The notes below the pieces were generated by a model, which had not been told where the DNA came from, made no database searches, and saw only the letters and a list, made by a program, of their open reading frames with translations. A stretch of 64,000 nt of DNA from Candidatus Doudnabacteria bacterium. GTDB lineage: Bacteria > Patescibacteriota > Doudnabacteria > UBA920. Of this stretch, positions 8,930 to 26,638 are shown one piece after another. The stretch spans positions 93,210-157,209 of the forward strand of contig PLYC01000013.1 of the NCBI GenBank assembly GCA_003151625.1. The letters run 5' to 3'. How positions within the stretch are numbered: the stretch's first letter is position 1; each line of letters begins with the position of its first letter. A program made the position numbers and the translations under genes.

Positions 8930-8948
8930 AATTGCGTATGAGCAAATC

Positions 8949-9962: not shown

Positions 9963-10157
9963 TTAAAATTTTTTAGCTTTTAGTCTATTATTGGCAAAAT
10001 GCAAAGTAAAAGCCGAACCTGACGGCCGGGAAATTCCAAGCCGCGTGTCCATATAAAAACAGCGCGGACAGTCTAAGAACGTGCCAATCTTGCCCCGGCT
10101 TGGCTTAAAGAGCTTGTCGGTCGCTTGATCGAATAAATAGTTTCTTTTGCTTGGCAT
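9963..10157 (-). pseudogene. truncated paralog of the N-terminus of the Cas4-like nuclease at 15434-16177
   Basis: MPSKRNYLFDQATDKLFKPSRGKIGTFLDCPRCFYMDTRLGISRPSGSAFTL vs MAYKRSNLYEPEADKPFKLSRSKIDMFLDCPRCFYMDRRLGISRPSGPAFTL. ~85% DNA identity over ~150 bp. Confidence 0.6.
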
Positions 10158-10158
10158 A

Positions 10159-10806
10159 TTAGGATGCCAATAATTTTGTTACCCAATCGTTGAAATGTGG
10201 GCAATTATTTCTAATTTCCTGCAAACCGGTTCTGGAAGCTATTAGGCTGCCAAAAAGTGGCTTTCTATAGTTTGGGAAAAGTTTTATAAGTCTTTTGCTT
10301 GGATGAGTTTCCGGACCTTGGTTTATTTCCTCGGGAGTTTTAAAGGCATCTCTTATATTTTGCACATCCTGTTTTTTATTCCGATCCAAAGTATCGGAAA
10401 TAACTTCTGGTACTGAAAAAAGCAGGCCTTCAAACTCGTGAAGTTGCAAATAAGGAATGAAGCGTTCATTATTGATGTCGTTAGCAAAAGCCTGTTCCGC
10501 CGCTTTAACTTTATCGTAGCAAGAACCTTCATTTTTCCAATTTGGAAAGTCGGCAGGCAGGCCATAAAAATCCATCATCGTGGTTACCGCGGTAACATTT
10601 GAGTCCCTGAATAATTTTTTTGCATCGCGCTTTATGGCTCCATACGAACTTACGCCGCCCTTAAAATTTGGACTATTTTTAAGTATTTTTGTATTAATTA
10701 TGGTTGGAATTAAAAACAGACCCTGCTCCTGGAAGGTAGGGTTTAAAATATCTTTTACGAACCGTTCCTCAGTTTGTCCTTCGACTAAGATAAAAATTCT
10801 TTTCAT
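10159..10806 (-). CDS. DUF4276-like protein (partner of AAA_21 ATPase; possibly Toprim/OLD-like)
   Basis: N-terminal MKRIFILVEGQTEERFVKDIL, a characteristic DUF4276 start. 8-nt gap to the ATPase gene. Confidence 0.55.
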   Translation of the reverse strand: MKRIFILVEGQTEERFVKDILNPTFQEQGLFLIPTIINTKILKNSPNFKGGVSSYGAIKRDAKKLFRDSNVTAVTTMMDFYGLPADFPNWKNEGSCYDKVKAAEQAFANDINNERFIPYLQLHEFEGLLFSVPEVISDTLDRNKKQDVQNIRDAFKTPEEINQGPETHPSKRLIKLFPNYRKPLFGSLIASRTGLQEIRNNCPHFNDWVTKLLAS

Positions 10807-10813
10807 AAGTCAG

Positions 10814-11911
10814 TTATGGCCTGCCGCCAATAATATTTTTTTCCCACATATCTCCCAGTCCATAATCTTCAAGCCAAGAACCGAGTTCGTTAGAAGTGAG
10901 TCTTCGAAAAGAAGACTGTCCGTCGCTTCTGTCCACCACAATAATAGATTCGGGTTTTAGCTGATTTATCAAAGTTACGGATTGGGTTGAAACAATAACC
11001 TGTGTTCTGGTCGCGGCGCTTTGCAAAAGATTGGCAAGCAAATTTATTGCCGCGGGATGCAAACCTAATTCAGGTTCATCAAGCAAAATTGTGGTCGGCA
11101 ATTTTTCCGCCGGTTGTAATAATAAAGTTGCCAGGCATATAAAACGCAATGTGCCGTCAGACAATGAAGCTGCATTAAAATAGCTGTCAGAATTTTTGTG
11201 CTGCCATTCCAACTGAATACTGTCCGGTTTTAAGGGCGATGTTCTTAATACGAAAGAGTTAAAAAACGGAGCAATTAATTTAACGGTGTCAGTTATATTT
11301 TTAAAATCATAAGGATATTTTTTTTCCAATAAATACAAATAAGCCGCTAAATTTGAAGCGTCCGGTTTAAAAGAAGCGTTGTCATTTATTGGCCCGGTTT
11401 TTTTTAGTAAAGCTGTGTCGCTGGTATCATGGAAATGATACAGTCTCCAACTTCTTATGCTGGCCAAAGTGCTGGCAGAAACATTTCCCGCTTCTGCCGC
11501 GAGCCCCGTTTCCTTACGGTCGGGAGAGAGTGTATTAAATTCAAACGGTTTGGTGTAATTAGGTCCTAAATAAGAACCCCCTTCTTCTTCAAAAAATAAA
11601 GAATCATCAGCCGTAGGAACCAACTTTAGCCAGTAGGAATTGGGACCAAAATCAACTTTAACTTCCAAGGCGTGAGTAGTTTTTGAACCAAAATAAAGAA
11701 GCGTGTTGGCGCCTCCAGATTTTCTGATAAGGTTTTGCATGCGGCCTTCGGCCATTTCTCCCAAAAATTTGAAGAGTGAAATAAAGTTTGATTTTCCCGC
11801 GCCATTGGAACCAATCATTACATTTAAATCGCCCAATTTAAAATTTTCCAACGACTTGATGGATTTATAGCCTTTTATTGTAATATCAGTAACCTTATTT
11901 TGGTATACCAT
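10814..11911 (-). CDS. ABC-type AAA_21/SMC-like ATPase
   Basis: Walker A GSNGAGKSN, Walker B/D-loop LLDEPELGLHP, and VIVSTQS. Confidence 0.8.
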   Translation of the reverse strand: MVYQNKVTDITIKGYKSIKSLENFKLGDLNVMIGSNGAGKSNFISLFKFLGEMAEGRMQNLIRKSGGANTLLYFGSKTTHALEVKVDFGPNSYWLKLVPTADDSLFFEEEGGSYLGPNYTKPFEFNTLSPDRKETGLAAEAGNVSASTLASIRSWRLYHFHDTSDTALLKKTGPINDNASFKPDASNLAAYLYLLEKKYPYDFKNITDTVKLIAPFFNSFVLRTSPLKPDSIQLEWQHKNSDSYFNAASLSDGTLRFICLATLLLQPAEKLPTTILLDEPELGLHPAAINLLANLLQSAATRTQVIVSTQSVTLINQLKPESIIVVDRSDGQSSFRRLTSNELGSWLEDYGLGDMWEKNIIGGRP

Positions 11912-12214
11912 AATGCTTATATTATATCATAATTTTGACTATTTCATAGGCCAACTAGAAATCACTTTGACTCACCCTTTATTTCGTCCTCTAAATCTTC
12001 AAGCGGCATAGGTTTTAACTATTTGTTCTATCTTCTCCGGTTGTGCTTATTCCCAAGACTAAACAAAGCCCAAACGACAGAAAGCAGGCTTAAGAAAATT
12101 GCCAGTCCTTTGTGCCCGGTTTTAAAGAGTGCGTATATTAAGCAACAAAATGCTACAAATAGTATGAAGTCTAGCATGGGAGTTTAGTTATAATTTTTAT
12201 TAATAAATATAGAT

Positions 12215-12550
12215 TCATTCGCCTCTATTTTGTGTTTCGTATATCTCCCAGGCATAATCAAACGGCAGTAGTGAACATAAAAAATTGCCGTCCTTGTCCT
12301 TTGGGGTATATTCATCCACTATATCCAAAATTGCACTTTGCTCATCTTCCGAAAGTTCTCTCCCAATTAGATCCTGCAACTCAAGGAACTGTTCATCGAT
12401 AATGGCAACATTCCCTTCAATCCGCTGATCTTCATCTGTGGCTTGCTTCTGAGCAACTTTGTGCTCCACCATAAGTGTCCAAAACACATCCTCAAGAGTC
12501 ATCTTAGGAAGCATATTATCTTGTGCAAATTTTTTTGCTTTTTTCTTCAT
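12215..12550 (-). CDS. hypothetical acidic protein (last gene of the 8-gene operon)
   Basis: 111-aa ORF, 11 nt after the upstream gene. Confidence 0.45.
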   Translation of the reverse strand: MKKKAKKFAQDNMLPKMTLEDVFWTLMVEHKVAQKQATDEDQRIEGNVAIIDEQFLELQDLIGRELSEDEQSAILDIVDEYTPKDKDGNFLCSLLPFDYAWEIYETQNRGE

Positions 12551-12561
12551 ATTTATGATTT

Positions 12562-12873
12562 TTAATTTGGCAGCCTACCTTCTTTTTCTCTGATTAGATA
12601 TGTTTCTGACTTTAAACAACGGTTTATAATACCTTCCATATGCCAGTAGGTGTAACCGTTATAGTCAAAATATACCTGCTTTGTTTGATAAAAATGGGAT
12701 TCGTAACCGAAGGTGTCGATGTGATGCGCGAGTGCCAGGAACAAATCGTTATCAACCCGCTCCTGGACAATATACTCGTGAGGCCAGGTTTTTGCGTACG
12801 TGACTGCAAAAATCCACTTTGAATTGTCTATAAATTGTTTTAACTTTTCAGAAAGTTTACCATTCTTGGTCAT
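12562..12873 (-). CDS. hypothetical protein
   Basis: 103 aa. 4-nt overlap with the upstream gene. Confidence 0.45.
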   Translation of the reverse strand: MTKNGKLSEKLKQFIDNSKWIFAVTYAKTWPHEYIVQERVDNDLFLALAHHIDTFGYESHFYQTKQVYFDYNGYTYWHMEGIINRCLKSETYLIREKEGRLPN

Positions 12874-13979
12874 TCCGTCGCCTCCAAAGATTTTTTAATC
12901 CATAAACAGACTTCAAAAAATTCACGCCTGGCGTCTTCATTGGCGATAACCCGGAGAGGCAACTTTAGGCCGTTGTAGCCGTCAACATTATCCACATGTA
13001 CCGTGGCACCTTTGATTGAGCTAAGCCGTTTTAATATTTCGGAACGTTTTACCGGGTTATCAAAAGGGTATGGGCTTTTATTTCCCTGGTGGGGAGCATT
13101 CCAAGAAACATTCCCATCTCCGGTAACCGATAAAGGATAAAAACCTTTTTTACCCTCGGGATAATAACACAAGAAAAAACCGCCGCGCTGGCTCGTGGTC
13201 CATTCAATTTCTATACCATTGTCGTTTGCCCAATCAATGATCTTTTGTGCCGCTATCACTTCTTCTGCGCCAATTTCTTTCAAACGCTCTTTAAATATAT
13301 CCCAGTCCCATAATTTCTTATCACGAGTTGTTGTCTTCATGTCCTTTTTGACCTCGGCTCCAAATATTCTCGGAATAATTATCTCATACGTTTCGTGTTT
13401 ATAATACTCAAGCTCAACAGCATATATATCAAACTGGCTGTTTTGGTTAACGTAAAGTATTAAGTCCTTAAGTCTGGCATCAAGACTGTCCATCAATATG
13501 ACAAAATGAAGAGCACCGTCACTCAAATTATCGCGGACGGAATTCAGCAATTGGGCTATTTCTTCGTTAGATAGGCCAAAGTGTTCCTGAAGTTTTTGAT
13601 TCAGCGAAATCTTGAATGTTTTTTGAACATTCGCCTCAAGTATTGAGGAAAATTCACTAAAATCATTTGAGTGCTTCCAAAGAGCAGCACCATAATCCAG
13701 TGATTGAGCTACTACGGTTCGCTTATCGGGATTTTTGTACAGTTTAGTTTCAATAATATATATTTCTCCCTCTCTATCAACGCCGATTGCGTCAATTGGG
13801 CCGCTGTGCGTCGGGAACTCCCTAGCCAGGATAAGAAGCCGTATATCTTCTTTGATGTCATATAATGGGACACTGTCGGGATTATCGTAAATATATTTCT
13901 GAAGATAATCTTCTTTATCAAAAGTTGATTTTTCTATTTTTTTAGCATTTTTGCCGTTTTTAGAAATAATAATCGCCAT
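12870..13979 (-). CDS. hypothetical protein, possible PD-(D/E)xK nuclease fold
   Basis: GPIDAIGVDREGEIYIIETKLYK, a D..E.K-like arrangement. 369 aa. Confidence 0.4.
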   Translation of the reverse strand: MAIIISKNGKNAKKIEKSTFDKEDYLQKYIYDNPDSVPLYDIKEDIRLLILAREFPTHSGPIDAIGVDREGEIYIIETKLYKNPDKRTVVAQSLDYGAALWKHSNDFSEFSSILEANVQKTFKISLNQKLQEHFGLSNEEIAQLLNSVRDNLSDGALHFVILMDSLDARLKDLILYVNQNSQFDIYAVELEYYKHETYEIIIPRIFGAEVKKDMKTTTRDKKLWDWDIFKERLKEIGAEEVIAAQKIIDWANDNGIEIEWTTSQRGGFFLCYYPEGKKGFYPLSVTGDGNVSWNAPHQGNKSPYPFDNPVKRSEILKRLSSIKGATVHVDNVDGYNGLKLPLRVIANEDARREFFEVCLWIKKSLEATE

Positions 13980-14060
13980 AGGTTATATGTGTTAATTTCG
14001 CTTATACTATTTGTAATCTGATTAAGGCTCTTTCAATTAGTTTAAATTTTTATAGTTAGC

Positions 14061-15419
14061 TTATTCAAGAAAATCAGCTATCTTTTCTTGATTTATGATT
14101 CCATTTGCAAGAAAAAGGTCTTCTAATTGCGAATGGTCAACGCCAGCATGTGAAAGTTTATGAGCAATGATATTAAGTAAATCATTTGCTTTCATTAAAA
14201 CTACAGGGCATCGTGTTTCCTTATAAATATCTTTTATGGAGCTATCCAACGATTGGTTGTCAGAAAAGTCTGATGAGACAATCAGAAATGAAAATTTTTT
14301 AATCCGCCTTTTTTGGAGCTCTTTTTGATATTTTTTTATATATTCACTAATTTCTCTATCCCCAGTGCCAATAGAATATCCTTTTTCTCTAGCCTTTGCG
14401 TCATAAACAATGGCATAATAGTATTCAGAGTTTGCATCTGTCGAATAAGCGATGCCGTCTGGTTCTCTGCCTTTTCCTTGCCCGAGACTTTCCACTTCAT
14501 AACCCAAAATCCCAAATGCATAACCCAATTTTATTTCAAAAGCCCTTTCCGGTTTGAGATTCATTTTTTTTGACCATTCTGTTTCTTTATTTAAGGCAAG
14601 TTCTTTAAGGTCACTGATAATAGGCGGCACCCATTCTCTGACCAATTGATTAGGTTTTTGTTTAATGGGTGATTCCTTTTTGGTTTCTGCCTCTATTATT
14701 TCATCCGTTCTTATTGGCTCTTTAAATCCACCCCAAGGAGCTTGGTCATCTTCCGCATCAACTTTCCATAAATCTTTCACGCCAGACGAATATAGAAAAG
14801 ATGTTAATGTCCGTGGTGAGTATTTTATACCTAACTTTCTAAAACCAGCAATTAAATCATCGTTTGATTGGACAATCTTTTCCCCTATAGGGTCTTTTTC
14901 AAAATCCACGTGGCTTTCAAAGCCAAAGTATTCCGTGGCCTTTTTACGGTCTCTCAGCGAGATAACGCTGACACTGGAAGATGGGTTATAGGCAAAAATC
15001 ATAGCACTGACCGCGTTGCCGCGTGGTCCGGTTAAGTTGTTGTGGTTACCTTCATTTAACTTATATAGTTCATCAATTAATTTAGCTTTTTCTTCACCCA
15101 CGGTTTTGAATATTTGATCTAGTTGTTTATGCAGTTCTGGCTTATTTTTAATTTCATTAAACATCCGACGCCAAGCCCCTTGTGTGATCATAGTCCTCGC
15201 TACTGCTTCACTTTCTCTGGTATTGCCCTTCCCAGCCCTGTCCAATATTCTGATTATTCCATCCAATTCTAAATCATCCAAATCCTCTTTGGAATTGGTC
15301 ATAATCTTACCATTCCAAAAGTCCCTAAACTCCCTGCTTTGTGCTACCCATAAAGCGTCCTTAGACTCGGAGTCATAATTTTTTATAAACTCGTTAAATA
15401 ATTCTATGATTTTGTCCAT
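14061..15419 (-). CDS. hypothetical protein (C-terminal possible PD-(D/E)xK-like motif)
   Basis: EPDGIAYS...YYYAIVYDAKAR. 452 aa. No confident family. Confidence 0.4.
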   Translation of the reverse strand: MDKIIELFNEFIKNYDSESKDALWVAQSREFRDFWNGKIMTNSKEDLDDLELDGIIRILDRAGKGNTRESEAVARTMITQGAWRRMFNEIKNKPELHKQLDQIFKTVGEEKAKLIDELYKLNEGNHNNLTGPRGNAVSAMIFAYNPSSSVSVISLRDRKKATEYFGFESHVDFEKDPIGEKIVQSNDDLIAGFRKLGIKYSPRTLTSFLYSSGVKDLWKVDAEDDQAPWGGFKEPIRTDEIIEAETKKESPIKQKPNQLVREWVPPIISDLKELALNKETEWSKKMNLKPERAFEIKLGYAFGILGYEVESLGQGKGREPDGIAYSTDANSEYYYAIVYDAKAREKGYSIGTGDREISEYIKKYQKELQKRRIKKFSFLIVSSDFSDNQSLDSSIKDIYKETRCPVVLMKANDLLNIIAHKLSHAGVDHSQLEDLFLANGIINQEKIADFLE

Positions 15420-15433
15420 TTTAGTATGCTTAA

Positions 15434-16177
15434 TTATGTAACTTCTACTAGCTGAGATTTTTTTCTATACTGGCAGAATTCGCATTCCGGGTTAGGAGCA
15501 GGGAGACTGGCTTGGTTTAAGCAATCGTGAATATTAAAAATTGTTTGCTCTACCCAGGAGTCCGAGCCGGTGTAAGGGATTAGTTTAGCGTCAAATTCCA
15601 ATACGCCATTAAAGCCTGCCCTGTCTTTCTTGCCGTTCACATAAAAAAAGTAACCGATGTTAGAAACTTTTAAACCATTTTGTCTTAACAGCCACTGGTA
15701 GACTTCCATTTGCCTGCGGTAGGAGTTATGCCACTTGGCATCCGTTAACTCTACCTCACCCTCTTTGCTGGTGGCCTTATAATCCACCACAATGTATTCT
15801 CCTTCCGAGTTTTTCCACAAATCATCAATGGCTCCAAAAATTAACATATTGGTTTTTTTGTGGAGGCACTGCACGCCGGTAAAATTATGCCGCCACTGGT
15901 CTAAAAGCTCATGAGCTACAGGCACAGCGTCCAGGCCGTAGGCTTCCATAAGCGGATGTTTGGTTCCATTGGCGCGGTAGACATCAAATTCTTTTTTCAA
16001 CAAAGCGTCCACGGCAACGTTCAAAGTAAAAGCCGGACCGGATGGTCGGGAAATTCCAAGCCGTCTGTCCATATAAAAACAGCGCGGGCAGTCTAAAAAC
16101 ATGTCAATCTTGCTCCGGCTTAGCTTAAAGGGCTTGTCGGCTTCGGGCTCGTATAGGTTGCTTCTTTTATAGGCCAT
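15434..16177 (-). CDS. Cas4-like/RecB-family PD-(D/E)xK nuclease with 4-Cys cluster
   Basis: N-terminal DCPRCFY, IVVDYKAT (D..K), C-terminal CEFCQY. 247 aa. Confidence 0.6.
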   Translation of the reverse strand: MAYKRSNLYEPEADKPFKLSRSKIDMFLDCPRCFYMDRRLGISRPSGPAFTLNVAVDALLKKEFDVYRANGTKHPLMEAYGLDAVPVAHELLDQWRHNFTGVQCLHKKTNMLIFGAIDDLWKNSEGEYIVVDYKATSKEGEVELTDAKWHNSYRRQMEVYQWLLRQNGLKVSNIGYFFYVNGKKDRAGFNGVLEFDAKLIPYTGSDSWVEQTIFNIHDCLNQASLPAPNPECEFCQYRKKSQLVEVT

Positions 16178-16185
16178 TTTAAAGT

Positions 16186-18771
16186 TTAATTTGAAAGATT
16201 TAATTTATCGCGTCTTTTCTCCAATGCTTTTTTGCCACCTTCCAAAATCTCAATAATTTCATCTCTGATTGCCGGGTTTTCAATAGCCCCTGATTCGTAA
16301 GTAAAGTTTGGATTTTTACCCGCAGTTTTATTTGAGACAACGACTTCCTCGCTGTCTCCGCAAACCACTAGATTTGCGTTATGGGATGCTATTATTATTT
16401 GCCGCTTTATTTTTTCGGCTTTTAGAAAGTCCACAATATGTTTTGAAATAGCTTTTGCATCCAAATCATCCTCTGGTTGATCCAGTAATACCGGGTAATT
16501 ATAATCGTCAAATTTAAAAATAAACTCTAATAAAGCTAGCATCTTTTCGCCATCGGACATATTGACAAACTCATCGCCATTTCGGCTTTTAATACTTTTC
16601 TGAAAGTCTACCTTAAACCTATTCCTAAATAATTCCATGAGCAAAATTTCTTCATTTTTTCCGGACTTCAAAATTAATTGACCTGTTAAAATACCCAGCG
16701 TTAGCTGTTTAAGAAGTAATGAGAATTCAATTTTTTTGTAGTCCCATTGCTCTGGCTCTCTTAGAAATGTATTTGCTTTTTCGTTTTTTGGATTTTCTTT
16801 AAAAGAAATAGAATTGTGGTAATTAATATTGTCTTCAATAAATTTTTTAAATGATTGCGTATCAAAACTAGTGGTAATGTCCACTTTTGAGAAAGCCAAG
16901 CTCCCCAGGTTTATGCTTAAACTTTTGAACTGCTCATTAAACTGGCTATACTTTTCTACAATTTTGCTAAGTCTGTCCGAGTAAGAGGCCCTTAACTTTA
17001 TAATTTCTTCGTCTGTTTCATTAATGGTTTTTAAAATTTCGGCTTTTTCTTGCAAGGTCTTTGTTAACATTAACAGCGCTTGATGTTTTTCTACCTTGGT
17101 TTGTAGAGGCTTTAACTCCGTGTCCAGTTCTTTAATTTTCTTTTTAACGTTTTCCTTTGAATTTACTAATTCCGTAATCTCTTTTTCAATAAAGTCCTTT
17201 TTAAAAACTTCGTCAGATTCTTTAAGTTTGGCCTCCATCTTTATTACATATTTTTGCGAAAATTCAAATTCCAAAATCTTGTCCGCTGAAATTACTTCTT
17301 CCTGCTTCAACATTTTAAAAGAAGCTAAGTCCTTGTCTATAATCTTAATTTCGCGTTCTTGCGCCGCCTTGTCAGAATTTATTTTTTTATAATTTTCAAG
17401 TTCCTTATTTGTGACTTCACTATTACTTTTCCTGGTCAAATTAAGGCTTGCCTCAATTTTCAAAATTTCTTTTTCCAAATCTTCCTTTTTCCCAAGTTTT
17501 TTTAATTTTTCTCCCTTTTCCCTGCCGTTATTCCTTATTGCTAGAAGTTCTCTGACAAGAGATGTTATAGACAATACGTTTTCGTCTTCAAATTTTTTGT
17601 AATTTTGTAGCGCATTTTTAAAGTTGTCTTTATTTTCAAAAAGATTTGACAAAAAGTTGTCAAAATTAACATTTTTTTCATACACCAAGTCCCCTAGGTA
17701 TTTTTGAGGAATAAAAAGAACTCCTTTATCTTCTGTTTCTTTTAAAGAACTAACTTTGCCATCTCTCCAAAATAGTTTGAAATTCTTTAACTGCAGGAAG
17801 TCGGCACCATCAACTCCTTTCAGCCTGCACTGAACTGGATCAATAGAAAAGGCAATATTTCTTAAAAGATTTGATTTCCCTGTGGCCCGACTCCCAATTA
17901 CTGAGTTTAAATTTTGATTAAAGTAAACTATTTGTTTACTACCGTCATGATTTGTGAATTCCGCTCTGTCAATAATACAATAATCGGATTTTTCCTCTGG
18001 TTTTAATTCTTGAATTTTAACCCTACATTCTGGTTCATAAATTATTTGTTTTAAACCTTCAAAAGTTGGATCGGCTTTTATCCAGCAATTTTGTTTAAGG
18101 GAGTATTTTTTGACATTATGGTTATCGGAACAAATAACCATTGGAAAAAAGCCAATCTTCTTAAAGACAGTATCCCTATAGTCGGCCTGGTCTTTCTCCT
18201 GCCCTAACTCAAAAATTTGCACTTCGCTCGCTATGTCTTTTTTCTCAGCCATTTTTACAGGCAGAGAGTTAGTAATTTTTTCTATGGAATTCGACTTCCT
18301 GCCCGCATGGATTGAGACAACGCCGCCGAGTCTTTTTATTAAGTTCGCAGTATCTTTTAAATCGCAGTAAATTTCGTTATCCTTTTGTCCTGATTGTCTT
18401 TGCGATGCAATCTTGGCTTGGGATTGTATTTCGTTCCAAATGTAATTTACATCCGAATTTTCCGGGAAAATGCCAATAAAGTGGACCGGCTCGCTCCCCC
18501 GGCTGTCTGAGCAAAATTCTATTCCTGGCAAAACAGTCAAATCATCACCGCCAGCCTTTTTTAATTTTTCAATAACCTGGGAGTCAATAATGTGATGATC
18601 GGTAATCGCAACAACTTTAATTTGTTGCTTTTTTAAGGCTTCAGCAATTTCCTCTGAAGTGTTGGCTTTATTGTCATGGTCGTAGGAGCTGGGAGTGTGA
18701 AAGTGTAGATCCCATTTTCTCCATTCGGAACCTCTAAAGTATTTTTGCATAGTTTTTATAGTAACGGCCAA
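16186..18771 (-). CDS. PHP-domain + SMC/ABC-like ATPase fusion protein (Ppl-like)
   Basis: N-terminal WDLHFHTPSSYDHD...AITDHH (PHP metal-binding motifs). Walker A GSRATGKSN, long coiled-coil, Walker B LLDQPEDDLD. 861 aa. Confidence 0.7.
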   Translation of the reverse strand: MAVTIKTMQKYFRGSEWRKWDLHFHTPSSYDHDNKANTSEEIAEALKKQQIKVVAITDHHIIDSQVIEKLKKAGGDDLTVLPGIEFCSDSRGSEPVHFIGIFPENSDVNYIWNEIQSQAKIASQRQSGQKDNEIYCDLKDTANLIKRLGGVVSIHAGRKSNSIEKITNSLPVKMAEKKDIASEVQIFELGQEKDQADYRDTVFKKIGFFPMVICSDNHNVKKYSLKQNCWIKADPTFEGLKQIIYEPECRVKIQELKPEEKSDYCIIDRAEFTNHDGSKQIVYFNQNLNSVIGSRATGKSNLLRNIAFSIDPVQCRLKGVDGADFLQLKNFKLFWRDGKVSSLKETEDKGVLFIPQKYLGDLVYEKNVNFDNFLSNLFENKDNFKNALQNYKKFEDENVLSITSLVRELLAIRNNGREKGEKLKKLGKKEDLEKEILKIEASLNLTRKSNSEVTNKELENYKKINSDKAAQEREIKIIDKDLASFKMLKQEEVISADKILEFEFSQKYVIKMEAKLKESDEVFKKDFIEKEITELVNSKENVKKKIKELDTELKPLQTKVEKHQALLMLTKTLQEKAEILKTINETDEEIIKLRASYSDRLSKIVEKYSQFNEQFKSLSINLGSLAFSKVDITTSFDTQSFKKFIEDNINYHNSISFKENPKNEKANTFLREPEQWDYKKIEFSLLLKQLTLGILTGQLILKSGKNEEILLMELFRNRFKVDFQKSIKSRNGDEFVNMSDGEKMLALLEFIFKFDDYNYPVLLDQPEDDLDAKAISKHIVDFLKAEKIKRQIIIASHNANLVVCGDSEEVVVSNKTAGKNPNFTYESGAIENPAIRDEIIEILEGGKKALEKRRDKLNLSN

Positions 18772-21700
18772 TTAGAAATAAGCTGATCAATTTCTTTCAT
18801 AATGCGGATGGTTTCGCGGAGGGAGGCGACGATTTTCATATAGTGCTTTAAGTCGTCCAAAGACAGGCTACGCTCGGCCTTTTTGCGATCCTTTAGCCAC
18901 TTCTCACAAACCTGATAGCCGCCAATCATAAACTCCCAAACTTCTTTTTCCACACCTTCAAAATACTGGCCGGGATTTACGTAAACTCGTCGGTCTTTAG
19001 CTGAATATTTAACCTCGGTAACTTTCCAGTCTTCCAAACTTTCCGGCTTCTCACCCCCAAGACTAATCCCCCATTTGTCCGAATCGTCAAAAATTGTCTT
19101 GGACTGATCAAACGGATTTTCTCCGAGCAAATGCAAATTTACTAACTCGTTACCTTTGGCAACTAATTTTTTAAACAGTTCTTTATTGGAAGTTAGCGGT
19201 AAGCGCGGAAAATCTATTTTCAACTGTTCGGCATACCTGATCCGGTAAGTCGGGCAATGAAAAATAGCATAAGTATAGTAAAACACATCTTCCGGTCCAA
19301 AAGTTTTTTCCAAATCACCTCGCCCATCGCTAATAAAGCTTATCCCAAGTTTTTGAGAACATTCCTTAGTAAATTTTTCGGAAAAATTTACTTTTTTGTT
19401 TAGTTTCCCAAAAAGATTAGATTGTGTTGAGTCGGAGTATAGGTATAGCGGAAAGATATAAGAGCCTATTGCTGAATCTAGATTATGCATATCACACAAT
19501 AATGATGTAACAAAAAAATGGTTATTTTTCTGATTCTGGATATTTCGATGTAGGGTCAGCCCTAAATTATTTTTATTAAGGAAATGTTTCATTATATCTT
19601 GTCTAGGCCAGTCTAACAATTCCTTGTTGTATATTAAATAACGGTTGTCAAAAGCTCTGAATTGAATTTTAATAATCTCATTATTATAATCTATCTTCTT
19701 TTTTCTCGCTTCTGATAAAAGCCATCCTCGCGTATCGCCCTTTAAATACTTACCTGATCTTTTCCCAGAAGAAAAAAATCTGACCCTAATAGTATCATCA
19801 CTATTATTTAAATTAAAAAAATAATCTAACTTTTTTAACAAATCTTTTCTTTCAAATCCATAAACAAGCTGATCCCTTGAAGATTGTATGCCTGTATTGC
19901 AAGAATCAAATACATCCTTTACAGAATTTATTTGGTTATAGTCATCTTCGTGATGGACTACTTTAAAAATGTAATGTGGAGCGTTTGGTTCAATTTCAGT
20001 CCACTCTGTATTATTAACTTCATGAGTTAAAAGGAACTCAAATTTATTTTCTTTTAGGCCAAAAAGTTCAGAATAAAAAATATTCTTTGCTATTTTTCTT
20101 TCGTTTTTGATAAAAAATGAAATTACAACACCTGTTTGAATTGGAAAAACATTTTCATCCTTTGTACCATCAGGCGCCTTTTCATTTTTGACCGAACTGC
20201 CATGTAAATTAAGAATATAAATTTCATCGAAATAATTCAATAAATTATAGCGCATTCCTCTAAAAGTTGGGTTATCCAGAAAATTGTGATTTGTTATAAA
20301 AGATAAAATTCCATGTCCTATATCTGCAATCTTCCATTGAGCAAAACGAATAAATTTTACATAATCATCTTGAAGCCAATGCTTTTTTTCTCCAAAATGT
20401 TTACCATCAATATATTTATAGTCCTCAATAAGTTTATTAATCCATTCTCCTTTATTAGCCGATACCCCGGAATATGGCGGGTTGCCGATTATAGCTAAAA
20501 TTGGCGCGTCTTTTTTGACTTTACGCGCGGCTTCGCTTTCTTCAGCGATTGAGGGAAAGGCTATAGAACCAAAATCAGTTGTAGCTTTGGCCTGTTTTTG
20601 GTAAGCGTTGGGATCATCAAGCGTATTTGCCAAATAAACTTTTAAGCGGTCTTTGTCGCCGTCGCCCTTTGCCATCTCAAAATCAAAACCCAAATCTTCT
20701 AAAAGCAAAGTAAGTTTTAAATGGGCAATGGCGTAAGGTGCGACTAAAAGTTCAAAGCCATAAAAATGTTTTAAAATGTGGTCAACAACTACCCTATTAA
20801 ATTCCTTAGTTACCATTTCTGGGCCCAAGGTGTTATTTTGCTTTTGAACTGCGGAGTGAATTTGCTGAATGGCGGACATTAAGAATGTGCCGGTGCCAGT
20901 GGCCGGGTCAAGTAAATGGACGCTTTCATCAGCCAAACCTTTTTCTTTGCCGAATTTTTCTTTTAAGATGAAATCTACACTACGGACAATGTAATCTACT
21001 ACCGGCTTTGGCGTGTAGTAGACACCTCGCGCTTCGCGTTCCTTAGGGTCGTATTCGTTCAAAAACGGCTCGTAGAAATGAATAACCGGGTCCTCGCCGA
21101 CTTTATGCTCTCGTAACTTTAACTCAATTTTAGCCATCTCGGCCGCGTTCAGCTGGTCTATTAGGGCGGTGGTGGCCTGGTGAATATTAGGAATAACTTG
21201 GGAGACTTTTTTAATCAAAGAATATAAGTCGGCCAAAATAGGAACGCTTGCTGGTAAATAATCCATTGCCGTGGTTAAGGTTAGAACATCGGACTTGCCG
21301 CGCTTGGTATGCTCCAAAGAGGCCAGGAATAAAGAATACGCCACAGTTTCGGCCACCATATTGGCAAACTGGTGCGGCTCTATATTTTGGATTAAAGTTT
21401 TCTCAAAAGTTTCTTTTAGCTTAACCAAGTCCGAAGTTTCGTCGGCATCCTTAAAGGCTTCTTCCACTTGATTAGACAAAAGCTTAGTCTTTTTTGCCAA
21501 GGCCAACGCCAGCTGTTTAGTGGTACGCGCTTCATAAGCTTTGCCGGAAAAGAATTGATGCAAGATGTCAATCAGGTTTTGCTCCTCGCCGGTGGTAAAA
21601 TTTGCAACATCAAAAATTATTTCTTTTATTTTTACCGGCTTGCCTTCGTCACCCCATTGCCAAAGCTGCCACTGTTTAAAATTGGTGAATAGAATATTTT

Positions 21701-22004
21701 CTAAAGCGTCCTTATATTTTTCAAACTGCTTATTGAATTTAGGACTGTCTAAGGAATCTTCCGGTAGTTTTACTTCCACCCAGCCAACCAGCCGGTCTTT
21801 TCGCCGTACAGTAACGTCAGGAAAGCCCACGCCACCGGCAACGGCTTTAGCGCTCTCTTCGGCCGTGGCAAATATGTCTTTGGACTTTTCCAATTCGGCG
21901 AGCTCCTGCAGGAAGTTAGTTAAAGCCGGGTAAAAGGATCGTTCGGTGCCGTGGTCTTTAATCCTTAAAAAACTTTGTTGGAATTTTTCTATTGGTATGT
22001 TCAT
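18756..22004 (-). CDS. N6-adenine DNA methyltransferase, Type IIG/IIL(MmeI)-like or PglX-like; possible N-terminal PD-ExK endonuclease segment
   Basis: Motif I LLDPATGTGTFL and motif IV IIGNPPYSG. N-terminal FPDVTV..GWVEVK. 1082 aa. 16-nt overlap with the downstream gene. Confidence 0.8.
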   Translation of the reverse strand: MNIPIEKFQQSFLRIKDHGTERSFYPALTNFLQELAELEKSKDIFATAEESAKAVAGGVGFPDVTVRRKDRLVGWVEVKLPEDSLDSPKFNKQFEKYKDALENILFTNFKQWQLWQWGDEGKPVKIKEIIFDVANFTTGEEQNLIDILHQFFSGKAYEARTTKQLALALAKKTKLLSNQVEEAFKDADETSDLVKLKETFEKTLIQNIEPHQFANMVAETVAYSLFLASLEHTKRGKSDVLTLTTAMDYLPASVPILADLYSLIKKVSQVIPNIHQATTALIDQLNAAEMAKIELKLREHKVGEDPVIHFYEPFLNEYDPKEREARGVYYTPKPVVDYIVRSVDFILKEKFGKEKGLADESVHLLDPATGTGTFLMSAIQQIHSAVQKQNNTLGPEMVTKEFNRVVVDHILKHFYGFELLVAPYAIAHLKLTLLLEDLGFDFEMAKGDGDKDRLKVYLANTLDDPNAYQKQAKATTDFGSIAFPSIAEESEAARKVKKDAPILAIIGNPPYSGVSANKGEWINKLIEDYKYIDGKHFGEKKHWLQDDYVKFIRFAQWKIADIGHGILSFITNHNFLDNPTFRGMRYNLLNYFDEIYILNLHGSSVKNEKAPDGTKDENVFPIQTGVVISFFIKNERKIAKNIFYSELFGLKENKFEFLLTHEVNNTEWTEIEPNAPHYIFKVVHHEDDYNQINSVKDVFDSCNTGIQSSRDQLVYGFERKDLLKKLDYFFNLNNSDDTIRVRFFSSGKRSGKYLKGDTRGWLLSEARKKKIDYNNEIIKIQFRAFDNRYLIYNKELLDWPRQDIMKHFLNKNNLGLTLHRNIQNQKNNHFFVTSLLCDMHNLDSAIGSYIFPLYLYSDSTQSNLFGKLNKKVNFSEKFTKECSQKLGISFISDGRGDLEKTFGPEDVFYYTYAIFHCPTYRIRYAEQLKIDFPRLPLTSNKELFKKLVAKGNELVNLHLLGENPFDQSKTIFDDSDKWGISLGGEKPESLEDWKVTEVKYSAKDRRVYVNPGQYFEGVEKEVWEFMIGGYQVCEKWLKDRKKAERSLSLDDLKHYMKIVASLRETIRIMKEIDQLISNWPLL

Positions 22005-25000
22005 TTAGGCAGTTATTTTAAATTGTATTTTTGCTAAATTTTTATACTCAAAAGTCATTTCCAGTTTATTCCTTAAATCCATAACTTTTTGGTCTTTCTG
22101 TAAAAACTGTTCCTGCTGCATTTTCATATACTTATTTTGGGCTTTAAATAAATCTTTTTGTTTTTTATCTTTTTCTTCCAATATTTGCTGGCGCTCATGA
22201 AAGCCGGTAGTCTTAGATGAAATTTTTAACTTTTTACCTATTTCCTTAAGCTCCTGCTCGCGCAAGTCCATCTCCTGTTTGTATTTTAAAATGGATTCAT
22301 CCACAAAACGGTCAAGATTCTGCATTTCTTGATCCACATAACCCTCATTTTCAGCTTTAATTTCCTGTTTAAAGTCGTTCCCGTTTTTTTGTATTAAGTC
22401 CGACAATTCGTCCCGAAGCCTTTCGTGCATATTTTTTTCTTCCGTCACTTCCAACTCAAACAGTTTTTCAGCTCTTTTTGGCTCAATTTTTTGCCACTGC
22501 CCGTCTTTAAATACCAACGAGCTTACAATAATTTTTTCAAAAGTTTCTTCGGTGTTGTTTATGGTTTTCCGGCTGCAGTTTAAGACATCAACCGAAATCT
22601 GGCCGTCCAGGCCAATAAATTCTTCCAAGACTTTCCTGTGGTCCTGTGGGTGCTTAAAAGTTAAAGACCATGAACCGGACAATTTTTTGTCCTGATCAAT
22701 GTTGTGCCTGACAAAATTGGTTTCCAGGTTAATTGGCAAAATACCCTCTTCCCTTTCGGCTTCAGAGAGTCTTCCTAAACAAAATTTACCGCCGGAATAT
22801 TCAAAAATTTTGTCACTTTTATAGTTAATGGTTTTACCTAAAGTAAAATTTAAGTAAGCCTTAAGCTGGGCGTCAAACTTGTTCAAAGAATCGTCAAAAG
22901 TCTGCTGGCGAATTTTTAGTTTTTGCCTGATTTCTTCGTCAAAATGTTGAATAACCTTTTTTTGCGTGTCTTCAATCTTTTCCTCAATAAAGTCGCCTAA
23001 GTCCAGCTGTAACTGTTTAAAGCCCTGGGCTATTTGCTGTTCAGTCCGGCACTTACGGTAAATTTCCAAAATTTTTCTTTCAAAATCCAAGCCCGCTCCC
23101 AAACCTCCTAAAGCAACTTCCCGGACCTCGTAACCGTCATCGGTTAATTTTTCAGTTCCTAAAACTTGATCGCTAAAATCAAACAGGTTACCGAATAATT
23201 TGATTTTTTCCTGCAACAATTCGTAAACTCTTTGGTCAGCGTAGTTTTTTTTATTTAAAAAGTTTACTACCAAGACATCCAACTTTTGGCCGTACCTGTG
23301 GCATCTGCCGATGCGCTGTTCAATGCGCTGCGGATTCCACGGTAAATCATAGTTAATAACAATGTTGGCAAACTGTAAGTTTATACCCTCGGCTCCGGCT
23401 TCTGTGGTAATTAAAATCGCCTTTGGCAGTTCTTTAAACTTCCAAACCAAGGCTTTTCTGATGTTGATGCTTTTAGAACCTCTGGCGGCTTCATCGGGAA
23501 AAGTCTGTTCCCATTCCGCGTAAATGTCTTTTGATCGTTTGGAGGCGTTGCTGCCATTAAATAAAACTAATTCGTACCCGCTGGCGCTTAAAAGTTTTTC
23601 CAAATGGTCCTGGGTACGCCTGGACTCAGTAAAGATTACCGCTTTTTGCGGCCAATGTTGCTTTTCGGCGTGAATGAAAACTTTTTTTAATACTTTGACC
23701 AATGCCTGACTTTTTTGGTTGACATCAATACTGCAAGCCAAATAGTAATATTCCAAAACATCCTTAAGTTCACGAAAGATTTCTTCTTTACTAAATTTAT
23801 GGTCTATTTCCCGCTCATTTTTCTTTTCCTGCGTTCCGTCAACTTTTTCGTCCTCTTGTAAGTCGTCCGATTCTTGGGTTTCTTCTTCCACTTCACCGGC
23901 TTTTATTTCCGCGTCTTCAAATCCCGGCAAAACTTCCTGAATCAAATCTTTTGTAGTTTCGGCAGGTTGAAGTTGGATGTCCGGCAGTGCCTTGCTGTAC
24001 TTGGTTTGAATTTCTAATTTTTGTTGCTTTATGTAGGCCTGGACATCTTCAAAAGTTACATCCTGCTCCTGCTGCAGTCTTTTAGCTAGAAAATGGACAA
24101 TCTTTTCCAACGTTCCGGCAATCGCGAACGAGGAACTGGCCAATATTTTGCGGTAAACCAATTCCATCATGTTTCTTTGGGTCGCGAGAGTGGAAGCTAA
24201 AATCGGCCTGCGTAAATATTCGCTTACCAGGTCATAAAGCTCTATTTCGTTGTCGTTCGGCGCGAAGTCTTCGGTGTGGCTAAAACGATTGGTAAAACTT
24301 ACAAATCCTCTAACCTGTTTTCTTAAGGTTCGGGTTAAAACGCCGCCGCTGACTTCCCCATTTTCAATAGTGCCCATTAGCCGTTCCTTGAGCTGGCCTA
24401 ATGAATCATATTTTTTGTGTCTTTTTACCGGATTAACAAAAAGGTTTCTAAAAGAATATTCTGTTCCTAAATAATTTTCTTCCAAAAAACTGGTCAAACC
24501 AAAAAGCTCCATTAAATTATTTTGTAATGGCGTCGCGGTCATTAAGATTTTAGGCCTGCTTAAAATAGCATCCTTAACTTTTTTTGCGACTTTATTTGTT
24601 TTTCTCCAAACGTTCCTTAAGCGATGGGCTTCATCAATTACAACCAAATCCCAGGCAACGTCTTTTACAAATTTTTCATACCGGTAAGCAAAATTATGGG
24701 ACGCTATATATATTCCATTTTCGGAAAGCGGATTTAACTTGTCTGTTTTGTCCTGTAAAATTTTTAACTGGGCCGAATCAACAATACTGCTTTCAAGATT
24801 AAAGCGGAGCGTGAGTTCATCTTGCCATTGAGTTCTTAAGGATGCCGGAACCAAAATTAGAATATGCTGCCTGCCTTCCACCCATAACTGATTGATTATT
24901 AGCCCGGCTTCTATGGTTTTTCCCAAGCCCACTTCATCAGCCAAAATCGCGCCTCTGGAAAGAGGACTTTTAAACGCAAAAACCGCCGCATCGACCTGGT

Positions 25001-25115
25001 GTGGGTTTAAGTCAATATTGGCGGCACGAATTACATTATTCAATTTTTCCGGGTCGCTGATTGATTTTTTTTCAGTCAGCTTGTGGGCTAAATAAAGCCT
25101 TTGAATTTGGGACAT
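22005..25115 (-). CDS. SNF2-family (SF2) helicase/translocase
   Basis: ILADEVGLGKTIEAG (motif I), VVIDEAHRLRN (motif II), MTATPLQNN (motif III), QRIGRCHRYGQ (motif VI). 1036 aa with a C-terminal coiled-coil extension. Confidence 0.85.
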   Translation of the reverse strand: MSQIQRLYLAHKLTEKKSISDPEKLNNVIRAANIDLNPHQVDAAVFAFKSPLSRGAILADEVGLGKTIEAGLIINQLWVEGRQHILILVPASLRTQWQDELTLRFNLESSIVDSAQLKILQDKTDKLNPLSENGIYIASHNFAYRYEKFVKDVAWDLVVIDEAHRLRNVWRKTNKVAKKVKDAILSRPKILMTATPLQNNLMELFGLTSFLEENYLGTEYSFRNLFVNPVKRHKKYDSLGQLKERLMGTIENGEVSGGVLTRTLRKQVRGFVSFTNRFSHTEDFAPNDNEIELYDLVSEYLRRPILASTLATQRNMMELVYRKILASSSFAIAGTLEKIVHFLAKRLQQEQDVTFEDVQAYIKQQKLEIQTKYSKALPDIQLQPAETTKDLIQEVLPGFEDAEIKAGEVEEETQESDDLQEDEKVDGTQEKKNEREIDHKFSKEEIFRELKDVLEYYYLACSIDVNQKSQALVKVLKKVFIHAEKQHWPQKAVIFTESRRTQDHLEKLLSASGYELVLFNGSNASKRSKDIYAEWEQTFPDEAARGSKSINIRKALVWKFKELPKAILITTEAGAEGINLQFANIVINYDLPWNPQRIEQRIGRCHRYGQKLDVLVVNFLNKKNYADQRVYELLQEKIKLFGNLFDFSDQVLGTEKLTDDGYEVREVALGGLGAGLDFERKILEIYRKCRTEQQIAQGFKQLQLDLGDFIEEKIEDTQKKVIQHFDEEIRQKLKIRQQTFDDSLNKFDAQLKAYLNFTLGKTINYKSDKIFEYSGGKFCLGRLSEAEREEGILPINLETNFVRHNIDQDKKLSGSWSLTFKHPQDHRKVLEEFIGLDGQISVDVLNCSRKTINNTEETFEKIIVSSLVFKDGQWQKIEPKRAEKLFELEVTEEKNMHERLRDELSDLIQKNGNDFKQEIKAENEGYVDQEMQNLDRFVDESILKYKQEMDLREQELKEIGKKLKISSKTTGFHERQQILEEKDKKQKDLFKAQNKYMKMQQEQFLQKDQKVMDLRNKLEMTFEYKNLAKIQFKITA

Positions 25116-25252: not shown

Positions 25253-26158
25253 TTATAGATTATTCAGCGGGTGTTTCGTGATTTGTGCCCGCAGATGTTC
25301 AGCCGTCGCGCTTAAATAAATTGTCGTGGTCTTGATGTCCGAATGGCCCATCATTTTGCTTAGGCTGTAAATGTCGCACCCACCTTCCAACATTAAAACC
25401 GCAAACGAATGTCTAAGTTTGTGAATTCCAAAGTTTATTTTGCTGGCTTTTTTTATAATCTCCACTAAGTTGCGCAGGCCCATTTGGGTAAAACCCATAT
25501 TCCGGTTTAACGAAGCAAAGAATTCCGGGCAGGTTTTATGTATTCTCTTTCTTTCAACCACGTATCTTTTTAAAGTTTCCGCCAGGGCAAAACAGATTGG
25601 AATCATTCTGTCTTTGTTGCCTTTCCCCTGCCGGACAAAGATTGTAAGGTTTTCCAAGTCTACATCCGCGAATTTTAAGTTTAGCAATTCGCCTTTGCGG
25701 AGCCCGGCCATTATAAATGTGGCAAAAATTGCGTGGTTGCGGTAACGCAGGTATTTATATTGGTACGGGTAATTGTAGACCACTTCCAGCAGTTTCATTG
25801 TCTGCTGTTTTGTCAGCTTGGGTGGCAGCCGCTTTTCTAACTTTGGAATTTCTATTTTCTCCGCGTAATTTTCAGGCATGTATTTCTCTTTGACGCACCA
25901 GCGGAAAAACACAACCAGACTTTTAATAAAGTTAATGTAGGTATTTGTACTCCAATTTCGTTCTGTGCGGCCATAGAAAAACAGCTTCCGGATATTCTCT
26001 TCGTTTATCTGCTCAAACTCGGTGACATTGCAATATTTGCAGTAATAGTTAATAACAAACCTATACCGTCTGATTGTGGCTTTGGCGTATCCTCGTATAA
26101 ACGAGGAATAGTCATAGAACTTTAGGGCCGCTAATTGTATGTCCATATATACCTCCAA
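25253..26158 (-). CDS. tyrosine recombinase/integrase adjacent to tRNA
   Basis: HKLRHSFAVLMLEGGCDIYSLSKMMGHSDIKTTTIYL catalytic box. 301 aa. ~40 bp from the tRNA 3' end. Confidence 0.85.
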   Translation of the reverse strand: MEVYMDIQLAALKFYDYSSFIRGYAKATIRRYRFVINYYCKYCNVTEFEQINEENIRKLFFYGRTERNWSTNTYINFIKSLVVFFRWCVKEKYMPENYAEKIEIPKLEKRLPPKLTKQQTMKLLEVVYNYPYQYKYLRYRNHAIFATFIMAGLRKGELLNLKFADVDLENLTIFVRQGKGNKDRMIPICFALAETLKRYVVERKRIHKTCPEFFASLNRNMGFTQMGLRNLVEIIKKASKINFGIHKLRHSFAVLMLEGGCDIYSLSKMMGHSDIKTTTIYLSATAEHLRAQITKHPLNNL

Positions 26159-26195: not shown

Positions 26196-26237
26196 AGTGG
26201 AGCCCACTATCGGATTTGAACCGATCACCTGCTCCTT
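26196..26237. repeat. 42-bp direct repeat (right copy) = 3' exon of tRNA-Thr; putative att site
   Basis: Identical to 1647-1688. Confidence 0.85.
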
Positions 26238-26460
26238 CACTTCTACCTCAATTTCGTAAATCTTATATGAGGGTTAGACTGTATATTTTTCCCGGCGCCG
26301 GGAAACCCTTGTCAGTCGTTCGGGCGATTGCTCGCCACGGTCTTGACCCGTGAGGGCTATTAACCGTTATTCGGGATTCGCTTTGAAATTACTTTCAGAG
26401 TGGGCATGAACATAAGCTGTTCTCACCATGGAGCTGCTCTACCAAATGAGCTAAGTGGGC
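26198..26460 (-). tRNA. tRNA-Thr(GGU), interrupted by a ~186-nt intervening sequence in the anticodon loop (putative intron)
   Basis: Minus strand: GCCCACT-TA-GCTC-ATTTGGTA-GAGC-A-GCTCC-ATGGTGA..[~186 nt]..GGAGC-AGGTG-ATCGG-TTCAAAT-CCGAT-AGTGGGC-T-CCA. All four stems are perfectly paired. Confidence 0.55.
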
Positions 26461-26602
26461 TTACAACGGCATGAGATTTTGAATGAACTTTTTTTGAGCC
26501 CGCGACCATCTCCCTGCGGGAGGTGCTCATGGGCTTTTCTCTTTTTGTGATTTTGCTCTTATATTAGAGCAAATCCCTGATAACAAGGTAGACTGCCTTT
26601 TT

Positions 26603-26638
26603 ACCATGGAGCTGCTCTACCAAATGAGCTAAGTGGGC
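26603..26638 (-). repeat. second tandem copy of the tRNA-Thr 5' half (acceptor, D-arm, anticodon stem 5' strand + GGT AA)
   Basis: 36-nt identity to 26427-26460. No T-arm or 3' half follows it. Confidence 0.55.

Follow-up and report, generated by a model that had tools for sequence, protein, structure and literature searches.

A mobile defence island in a Candidatus Doudnabacteria genome: a probable stack of separate modules headed by a conserved SNF2/Type IIL gene pair

In a stretch of 64,000 nucleotides (nt) from Candidatus Doudnabacteria bacterium (GenBank assembly GCA_003151625.1, contig PLYC01000013.1, positions 93,210 to 157,209 of the forward strand; hereafter the window), eight closely spaced genes at 12215-25115 encode a SNF2-family translocase, a single-chain restriction-modification (R-M) enzyme, a TrlF-family PHP-ATPase, a Cas4-like nuclease, two further predicted nucleases and two small proteins. 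We suggest, with a probability of roughly 0.65, that this cluster is the cargo of an integrative island that has inserted into a tRNA gene, within its 3' exon, and that it consists of separate defence modules stacked one behind the other, which are co-oriented and tightly packed. As a whole, the island is an ordinary kind of object, i.e. a mobile defence island. A reading made from the letters of the window (the sequence-only reading) had proposed a defence locus on a mobile island, and our data support this part of it; it had also proposed that the eight genes form one composite, methylation-based system, and this part we do not retain.

The eight open reading frames (ORFs) all lie on the minus strand at the coordinates that had been listed for them, and successive genes are 0, -16, 8, 14, 81, -4 and 11 nt apart. 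In the direction of transcription they encode the SNF2-family translocase (22005-25115; 1036 amino acids (aa)), the R-M enzyme, hereafter the methyltransferase (18756-22004; 1082 aa), the TrlF-family PHP-ATPase (16186-18771; 861 aa), the Cas4-like PD-(D/E)xK nuclease (15434-16177; 247 aa), a predicted two-domain FokI-type endonuclease (14061-15419; 452 aa), a predicted NucS-like PD-(D/E)xK nuclease (12870-13979; 369 aa), a small protein whose start overlaps the end of the 369-aa gene by 4 nt (12562-12873; 103 aa) and a small acidic protein (12215-12550; 111 aa). The gap of 81 nt separates the 369-aa gene from its upstream neighbour. Hidden Markov model (HMM) searches of all eight proteins against Pfam, PADLOC and NCBIfam, and for the small proteins also against PHROGs, agree with the domain calls made earlier.

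One genome per species was scanned with an alignment of 20 methyltransferase homologues, giving 73 loci, and all ORFs of these loci were searched with the proteins of the window. Thirteen loci have an intact methyltransferase at least 48% identical to that of the window together with upstream sequence; close homologues come mostly from metagenome-assembled genomes (MAGs) of Patescibacteria/the candidate phyla radiation. In all 13, a full-length SNF2 gene is located directly upstream of the methyltransferase gene (1046-1913 bits), and the bit scores of the two proteins correlate (r = 0.88; 12 loci). By contrast, TrlF and the 452-aa, 369-aa, 103-aa and 111-aa proteins are absent from all 13, the Cas4-like gene is present in two, once upstream and divergent and once downstream, and the downstream neighbours of the pair change from locus to locus. 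Methyltransferases that are at most 46% identical to that of the window have no helicase neighbour. Judged by these neighbourhoods, the SNF2 and Type IIL-type genes are a conserved two-gene unit, and the only conserved multi-gene unit of the cluster. The literature searched yielded no description of such an obligate pair, i.e. of a split relative of the Type ISP enzymes with parts that would act in trans.

The sequence-only reading had named a lack of co-conservation in related genomes as the finding that would speak against a single system, and this is the outcome of the comparison. The co-directional arrangement, the tight packing with two overlaps and a content of nucleases, ATPases and a methylase that fits defence are what an eight-component system has in its favor; however, at most two or three of the eight are found together in any related locus, remnants at cassette junctions show piecemeal assembly and the 81-nt gap interrupts the run before the 369-aa gene, and we consider such a system most improbable. 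While the eight genes are indeed co-directional, the run does not end where it had been drawn, as it continues beyond position 12215 with an ABC ATPase gene, a gene for a DUF4276 protein and a Cas4-like ORF that is truncated. We note as a caution that genes packed tightly and in one direction on a mobile island are no evidence of a single system.

An integrase-bounded island had been recognized before, and its boundaries can now be given exactly. A split tRNA gene (26196..26460, minus strand) is interrupted in the anticodon loop by an intervening sequence of ~187-194 nt. The 3' exon of this gene (26196-26237, minus strand; 42 nt) is the left attachment-site repeat, and the right attachment-site repeat (1647-1688, minus strand) is an exact 42-nt copy of it. 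A 25-nt core of the repeat matches exactly at these two sites only, with 0 matches in shuffles, and alignment stretches the identity from this core to 42 nt. Because the 3' exon is repeated exactly at both ends, the genes sit in an integrative island of ~24.6 kb (1647-26237). Genes for tyrosine integrases lie near both ends, one next to the tRNA gene and 137 nt upstream of the SNF2 gene (25253-26158, minus strand; Pfam Phage_integrase 6.8e-28) and the second at the far end (1885-2835, minus strand; identified with Pfam). ARAGORN with the intron option reports a tRNA with a 187-nt intron and all spliced constructs fold as tRNA; ARAGORN with default settings and Rfam missed the split tRNA, and in Rfam the intervening sequence matched no family and no group I intron. 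The identity of the tRNA varies with the splice point (Thr, His or Pro). The 5' half of the gene recurs 178 nt upstream as a 41-nt stretch with 95% identity (26598-26638), and at the other end of the island the 3' end of a gene for a large serine recombinase (139-1701, plus strand) overlaps the right attachment repeat.

The SNF2 protein has the motifs expected of an SNF2-family translocase, as called before (GLGKT at residue 63, DEAH at 161, TATP at 193 and QRIGRCHRYGQ at 600), and matches Pfam SNF2-rel_dom (2.5e-32) and Helicase_C (3.1e-20). Its nearest kin are DrmD and RapA, and its best HMM matches are to DrmD models, i.e. PADLOC PDLC02619 (1.8e-157, in two partial stretches) and NCBIfam DrmD_b (531 bits against a cut-off of 950). 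These matches, together with the order of a SNF2 gene before a gene for an N6-adenine (N6A) methylase as in Class 1 DISARM (10.1101/2021.12.28.474362), would fit a Class 1 DISARM system in reduced or variant form, consisting of DrmD and DrmMI with replaced effectors. We find this reading hard to credit. The DrmD_b cut-off is missed; DrmMI models are absent from the 13 PADLOC matches of the methyltransferase, the best of which are REase_MTase_IIG models; neither DrmA, DrmB (DUF1998), DrmC (PLD) nor a second helicase was detected in the Pfam scan of 28 ORFs from the island and its flanks, 12 of which were also scanned with PADLOC; and full-length homologues of the SNF2 protein stand at the head of Type III-like operons on plasmids as well. 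Specifically, homologues with 33-36% identity lead operons of the order HTH-SNF2-methylase-(inserted gene)-DEAD helicase on plasmids of Salmonella and Rhizobium, and another leads a Type III operon in a further locus (L111). Therefore, the family recurrently leads R-M-type operons. The Salmonella (NZ_CP117699.1; L172) and Rhizobium (NZ_CP072872.1; L173) plasmids are conjugative, and in their operons different genes (IS256 and Abi, or DUF262) are inserted between the parts, which is a clear case of embedding.

The methyltransferase has the gamma-class motifs that had been read from its sequence (DPATGTG at 366 and NPPY at 508), and the suspected PD-ExK segment at its N-terminus was confirmed: D63, E77 and K79 of the motif GFPD(63)...VEVK(77-79) are invariant across 20 homologues. 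It matches Pfam Type_ISP_C (8.6e-88) as well as N6_Mtase, MmeI_Mtase and Eco57I, and PADLOC REase_MTase_IIG (1.1e-229), and it belongs to a family with more than 7000 detected relatives. In a PDB sequence search, it matches DrdV (1e-44), LlaGI (1e-37) and LlaBIII (2e-36). In its AlphaFold2 model, the N-terminal domain is an alpha/beta nuclease-like fold in the confidently predicted part; with Foldseek the model aligns over its full length to DrdV (E 1e-33), which ranks ahead of LlaBIII, LlaGI, MmeI and PglX. The putative target recognition domain (TRD; residues 641-900) is the least conserved part (0.50 versus 0.62-0.80 elsewhere), as diversifying specificity would give. A Borrelia lp56 protein annotated as a restriction/modification enzyme of type ISP is 34% identical over 98% of the length of the window methyltransferase; we take the lp56 genes to be BBQ67/BBE02, i.e. 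stand-alone R-M enzymes. On the strength of these matches and of the model, the methyltransferase is predicted to be a complete single-chain R-M enzyme with a PD-ExK nuclease, a helical region, a gamma-class N6A methyltransferase and a TRD. Separately, SNF2-less relatives of the methyltransferase at four loci from Cloacimonadota MAGs (L024, L025, L052 and L063) have in common a conserved set of three upstream co-directional ORFs (~340, 321 and 367 aa).

The same data bear on the idea that the SNF2/methyltransferase pair works for the mobile element, with a methylase that helps in anti-restriction or establishment, and carries out no restriction. The pair lies on an integrative island, a large serine recombinase gene is found near it in seven of the 13 related loci, and SNF2 homologues are common on conjugative plasmids, all of which this idea would lead one to expect. 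Nevertheless, the invariance of D63/E77/K79 in 20 homologues argues for a retained cleavage activity, the TRD varies as in active R-M enzymes and the neighbours are defence genes. We therefore regard a purely element-serving role as highly unlikely.

Domain content, the pattern of conservation and the ends of the island are observed; the biochemical activities of the modules, and their functional independence, we infer as follows. In module 1, the Type IIL-type enzyme would methylate host DNA at a short asymmetric site, on one strand, and its N-terminal PD-ExK domain would cleave unmodified DNA. The SNF2 protein would provide ATP-driven translocation in trans, i.e. the role that the fused motor has in Type ISP enzymes, and this translocation may let distant sites communicate or clear DNA. 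If the pair is an ATP-dependent restriction enzyme, it would be a natural variant of the Type ISP design that is split over two proteins, and a motor of the chromatin-remodeller type would be recruitable in trans by a Type IIL enzyme. This would bear on how enzymes that methylate one strand tell new host DNA from foreign DNA, and also on the job of DrmD in DISARM. As the SNF2 family also leads Type III-like operons on enterobacterial and rhizobial plasmids, the question is wider than this genome.

Module 2 would consist of TrlF and the Cas4-like nuclease. The PHP-ATPase is the fusion of a PHP phosphoesterase to an SMC-like ATPase that had been described (HFH at 23, GSRATGKS at 293, DQPE at 764), but it is a member of the TrlF family and not of Ppl proper, to which its architecture had been likened: it scores 450.8 bits against NCBIfam TrlF (NF045780; cut-off 350; residues 13-857) and 130 bits against Ppl_antiphage (cut-off 1000). 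Pfam PHP, SMC_N and AAA_21 match, and the ABC/SMC-like ATPase has a coiled-coil insert. More than 3300 relatives of TrlF were detected; no paper on TrlF was found in the literature searched, and a PDB sequence search gave no match. Seven TrlF loci were reached through TrlF itself. In three, TrlF stands alone (L007, L086 and L088); in the others, it is directly behind a Type III Mod-Res operon (L006 and L174), a Type II system with Vsr (L090), or an MmeI-family IIL enzyme with a DEAD helicase and a T5orf172 nuclease (L175). Distant plasmid members (~27% identity) have a Type I system or a Gabija-like pair as neighbour or are solitary, and TrlF also stands alone in plasmid defence islands on E. 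coli and Klebsiella plasmids.

The Cas4-like protein has the four cysteines by which it had been recognized (30/33 and 232/235). It matches Pfam PDDEXK_1 (1.1e-14), marginally Cas_Cas4, and TIGR00372 with 37 bits at a cut-off of 65; nothing in the PDB matched it by sequence. Metagenomes contain at least 580 close relatives of its gene, and most of these are in other contexts. Among the best 80 of these loci, the commonest neighbours are the housekeeping genes for MnmA, YceG and UDG (in ~10), a distant methyltransferase is found in two, a SNF2 gene in two, and a TrlF-like gene directly upstream in three; in two loci of this kind, the TrlF-like gene follows a Type III Mod-Res operon (L095) or a Type I HsdR gene (L110). 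A copy that is 92% identical to the Cas4-like gene is lodged between a Shedu gene and a GmrSD-HNH gene. Behind TrlF in L006 and L175 lies a DUF2779 protein with a marginal Cas4-domain match (Pfam Cas_Cas4); BLASTP between DUF2779 and the Cas4-like protein was not significant, and the link between the two is this marginal Pfam match only. DUF2779 proteins with a marginal N-terminal Cas4-domain match were seen beside R-M/TrlF genes at L006 12645-14135, L175 10760-12244 and L004 9340-10947.

As far as domain matches and gene order tell, TrlF and the Cas4-like nuclease are a portable unit that occurs by itself or follows directly on R-M operons, which are of several types, and the order R-M, TrlF, Cas4-type nuclease is recurrent and non-obligatory. 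A description of this order was not found in the literature searched, and the order is a testable lead on the function of the very large TrlF family, which so far is named in NCBIfam. For module 2 we suggest that TrlF, as a PHP nuclease with a Rad50-like ABC ATPase, and the Cas4-like exonuclease would act as an independent effector that is directed against DNA ends or is abortive. DNA-end or abortive action has been proposed for Ppl-like proteins.

The recurrent order also allows two readings in which module 2 is tied to restriction. In the first, genes 1-4 (SNF2, Type IIL enzyme, TrlF, Cas4-like nuclease) are one four-component system and genes 5-8 are separate. The R-M pair would recognise DNA that is unmodified and cut it, and TrlF and the Cas4-type nuclease, likened to Rad50/Mre11 and a RecB-like exonuclease, would destroy the ends or guard the R-M enzyme. 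PrrC and RloC guard Type I systems in this manner and fire when the R-M enzyme is inhibited. TrlF or a TrlF-like gene is right behind the last R-M gene, with an overlap or a gap of at most 16 nt, in the window and in L006, L174, L175, L090, L095 and L110; a Cas4-domain nuclease follows TrlF in the window and in L006, L175, L095, L110 and L136; L111 has the order SNF2, Type III Mod-Res, AAA_13 ABC ATPase, Cas4-like; and in L009 and L010 an SMC-like ATPase is right behind the SNF2/methyltransferase pair. However, 11 of the 13 pair loci have no adjoining ABC ATPase or Cas4-like gene, TrlF is found by itself in three of seven sampled loci and on the E. coli and Klebsiella plasmids, its relative Ppl is a single-gene defence system, a TrlF-like neighbour was seen in just three of the best 80 Cas4-like loci, and plain island accretion or embedding predicts the same adjacency to R-M genes. 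We consider a four-component system rather unlikely.

In the second reading, TrlF, usually with a Cas4-domain nuclease, is a restriction-linked accessory module that can be placed after an R-M system whatever its type (I, II, III or IIL) and would work together with it. Here it would be docked to a split form of a Type ISP-like enzyme, with a SNF2 motor in trans and a IIL-type nuclease-methyltransferase-TRD chain. TrlF would finish restricted DNA ends or be a back-up for the case that restriction is blocked. We view this possibility as doubtful.

Several observations weigh against our suggestion of separate modules. Firstly, the spacing is tight: genes overlap by 16 and by 4 nt, and all gaps but one are 14 nt or shorter. 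This suggests co-transcription, and therefore function in the host could be coupled without co-conservation. Secondly, TrlF is directly behind an R-M operon in four of the seven sampled loci as well as in the window, and the order in L175 (IIL enzyme with helicase and nuclease, TrlF, Cas4-domain nuclease) mirrors, with non-orthologous parts, the first four genes of the cluster; both hint at more than chance adjacency. Thirdly, few loci were sampled for gene context, and they stem from pattern-based scans of collections rich in MAGs, in which the patterns used for searching bias which loci get seen. Finally, promoter and terminator scans of the locus gave counts equal to those in shuffles and are therefore uninformative on operon structure. 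Scans of viral contigs with single SNF2 and TrlF proteins gave no matches, because the peptide patterns chosen are poorly conserved.

The earlier call of weak nuclease-like motifs in the 452-aa and 369-aa proteins holds as FokI-type and NucS-like domain assignments, and we suggest that the two are modules 3 and 4, i.e. that a FokI-type endonuclease with a helical N-terminal domain and a NucS-like nuclease with the two small ORFs would act separately. The 452-aa protein has an all-helical N-terminal domain (residues 1-220) without a clear structural relative, a linker and a FokI-type cleavage domain (256-452; PD320...D340-A-K342). Among its 329 detected relatives, the same N-terminal half is joined to a FokI-type or a NucS/DUF1016-type nuclease. 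Its two closest homologues (65% and 63% identity) lie behind a Type I R-M operon and before the gene for a 1320-aa T5orf172-ResIII-Eco57I protein, respectively. The 369-aa protein has a NucS-like PD-(D/E)xK domain (D63...E77-T-K79) and a C-terminal half without a characterised relative. It matches PADLOC PDC-S11 (3.6e-18, residues 7-223) and NCBIfam NucS (2.3e-05, far under the cut-off), and nothing significant in a PDB sequence search; a look-up of its exact sequence found no record. Homologues (57% and 54% identity) are found in viral contigs beside genes for methylases, terminase, reverse transcriptase and SNase.

The two small proteins match nothing in Pfam, PADLOC, NCBIfam or PHROGs. Both had been called acidic, which is correct for the 111-aa protein (isoelectric point 4.4) but not for the 103-aa protein (7.0). 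One homologue of the latter (33% identical) lies in a viral contig between genes for a PAPS-reductase and a ParB_N protein. The viral contigs with homologues of the 369-aa and 103-aa proteins contain none of the other genes of the run.

Downstream of the eight genes, and 303 nt beyond the 111-aa gene, lies what would be module 5, HEC-01 followed by a truncated Cas4-like gene. HEC-01A, an ABC ATPase (10814-11911, minus strand; PADLOC 3.4e-142; Pfam AAA_21), and HEC-01B, a DUF4276/TOPRIM-like protein (10159-10806, minus strand; PADLOC 4.9e-82; Pfam DUF4276), are both matched near full-length, and their genes are 7 nt apart, which makes the pair a member of HEC-01. HEC-01 is a PADLOC candidate that gave no protection in the assay used (10.1101/2024.01.29.577857). 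One nt behind the DUF4276 gene lies a 64-codon ORF (9963-10157, minus strand), a second Cas4-like gene that is cut off at a cassette junction. It shares a 169-nt repeat, at 80% identity, with 16013-16181, and its product and residues 1-64 of the Cas4-like protein have 63% identity (E 5e-26). A direct repeat of 32 nt (31/32 identical; 8899-8930 and 11979-12010) brackets the segment with HEC-01, the Cas4-like remnant and an S66 peptidase gene; the copy at 8899-8930 is the start of a 51-aa acidic ORF (8774-8929), and the other copy is a truncated 15-codon version of it. Such gene remnants at cassette junctions point to piecemeal assembly. The 303-nt gap contains a strongly hydrophobic 49-aa ORF (12027-12176, minus strand; MLDFILFVAFCCLIYALFKTGHKGLAIFLSLLSVVWALFSLGNKHNRRR), which could encode a small membrane peptide or a toxin.

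Besides the S66 peptidase gene, the island carries, between the second integrase and the defence genes, genes identified with Pfam for a ParB-like protein (2825-3808), a RadC-like JAB protein (6115-6585, plus strand) and a NERD-domain protein (7246-7977, minus strand). Island ORFs without family match are located at 7982-8566, 6643-7023, 5801-6109 and 3820-4197.

The sequence-only reading had seen neither BREX nor DISARM nor an ordinary Type I/III system in the locus, and indeed the locus fails to classify as any of these. Among the known systems that come close are the DrdV/MmeI-type IIL/IIG enzymes. The methyltransferase shares their one-chain order of nuclease, helical region, methyltransferase (NPPY) and TRD, and DrdV is both its best PDB sequence match and its full-length structural match. 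To our knowledge, the members of Type IIL/IIG that have been described work alone. By contrast, the clade of the window enzyme (at least 48% identity) always has a SNF2 gene placed start-to-stop upstream, and more distant members are without it.

Type ISP enzymes are one polypeptide with the order nuclease, SF2 (superfamily 2) motor, methyltransferase and TRD, and they cleave after two translocating enzymes collide (PMC3874165). The locus in the window has the same parts list, with a homologous gamma-class methyltransferase and a Type_ISP_C specificity domain. However, the Type ISP motor is Type I-like and fused, whereas the motor in the window is a separate SNF2 protein and the nuclease is on the methyltransferase chain. 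Type ISP proper was therefore rejected as an assignment, as motor and methyltransferase-TRD are on two proteins. By analogy, the SNF2/Type IIL pair likely shares the logic of Type ISP, i.e. asymmetric sites and ATP-driven translocation.

With Class 1 DISARM, in which a SNF2 gene precedes the N6A methylase gene and which, as DISARM, is defined by a core triplet (10.1101/2021.12.28.474362), the locus shares a DrmD-like SNF2 gene directly before a gene for an N6-adenine methylase. It differs from it in that the methyltransferase is not DrmMI-like and has its own nuclease, and in that the SNF2 protein is under the DrmD_b cut-off. BREX was rejected, as the Pfam and PADLOC scans gave no PglZ or BrxC matches and a weak PglX match (2.3e-07) that covers the methyltransferase core only. 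With Hma, Gao_RL and MANTIS, the locus shares the parts list of helicase, methylase and ATPase, and Hma and MANTIS are hosts of embedded defence genes; the SNF2 protein matches HmaA only at 4.7e-39 and the methyltransferase has no HmaB match. Hma and MANTIS were rejected because the proteins scanned include no DUF499 AAA+ ATPase; an MtsB-like protein is also missing among them, and their ATPases are of the ABC/SMC type.

TrlF resembles Ppl in its N-terminal PHP domain, its SMC/ABC-like ATPase and a weak full-length match, and differs from it in belonging to the sister NCBIfam family. The Cas4-like nuclease was rejected as a CRISPR-associated Cas4, as its TIGR00372 score is under the cut-off, the window has no CRISPR repeat arrays and the usual neighbours of its relatives are housekeeping genes. 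PDC-S11, like HEC-01 a PADLOC candidate found by guilt-by-embedding, is matched by the 369-aa protein in the N-terminal 220 residues only. Methylation-based systems often carry embedded or appended defence genes (10.1101/2024.01.29.577857), and the island described here, with a putative split Type ISP-like pair at its head and further putative defence modules behind it, would be of this kind.

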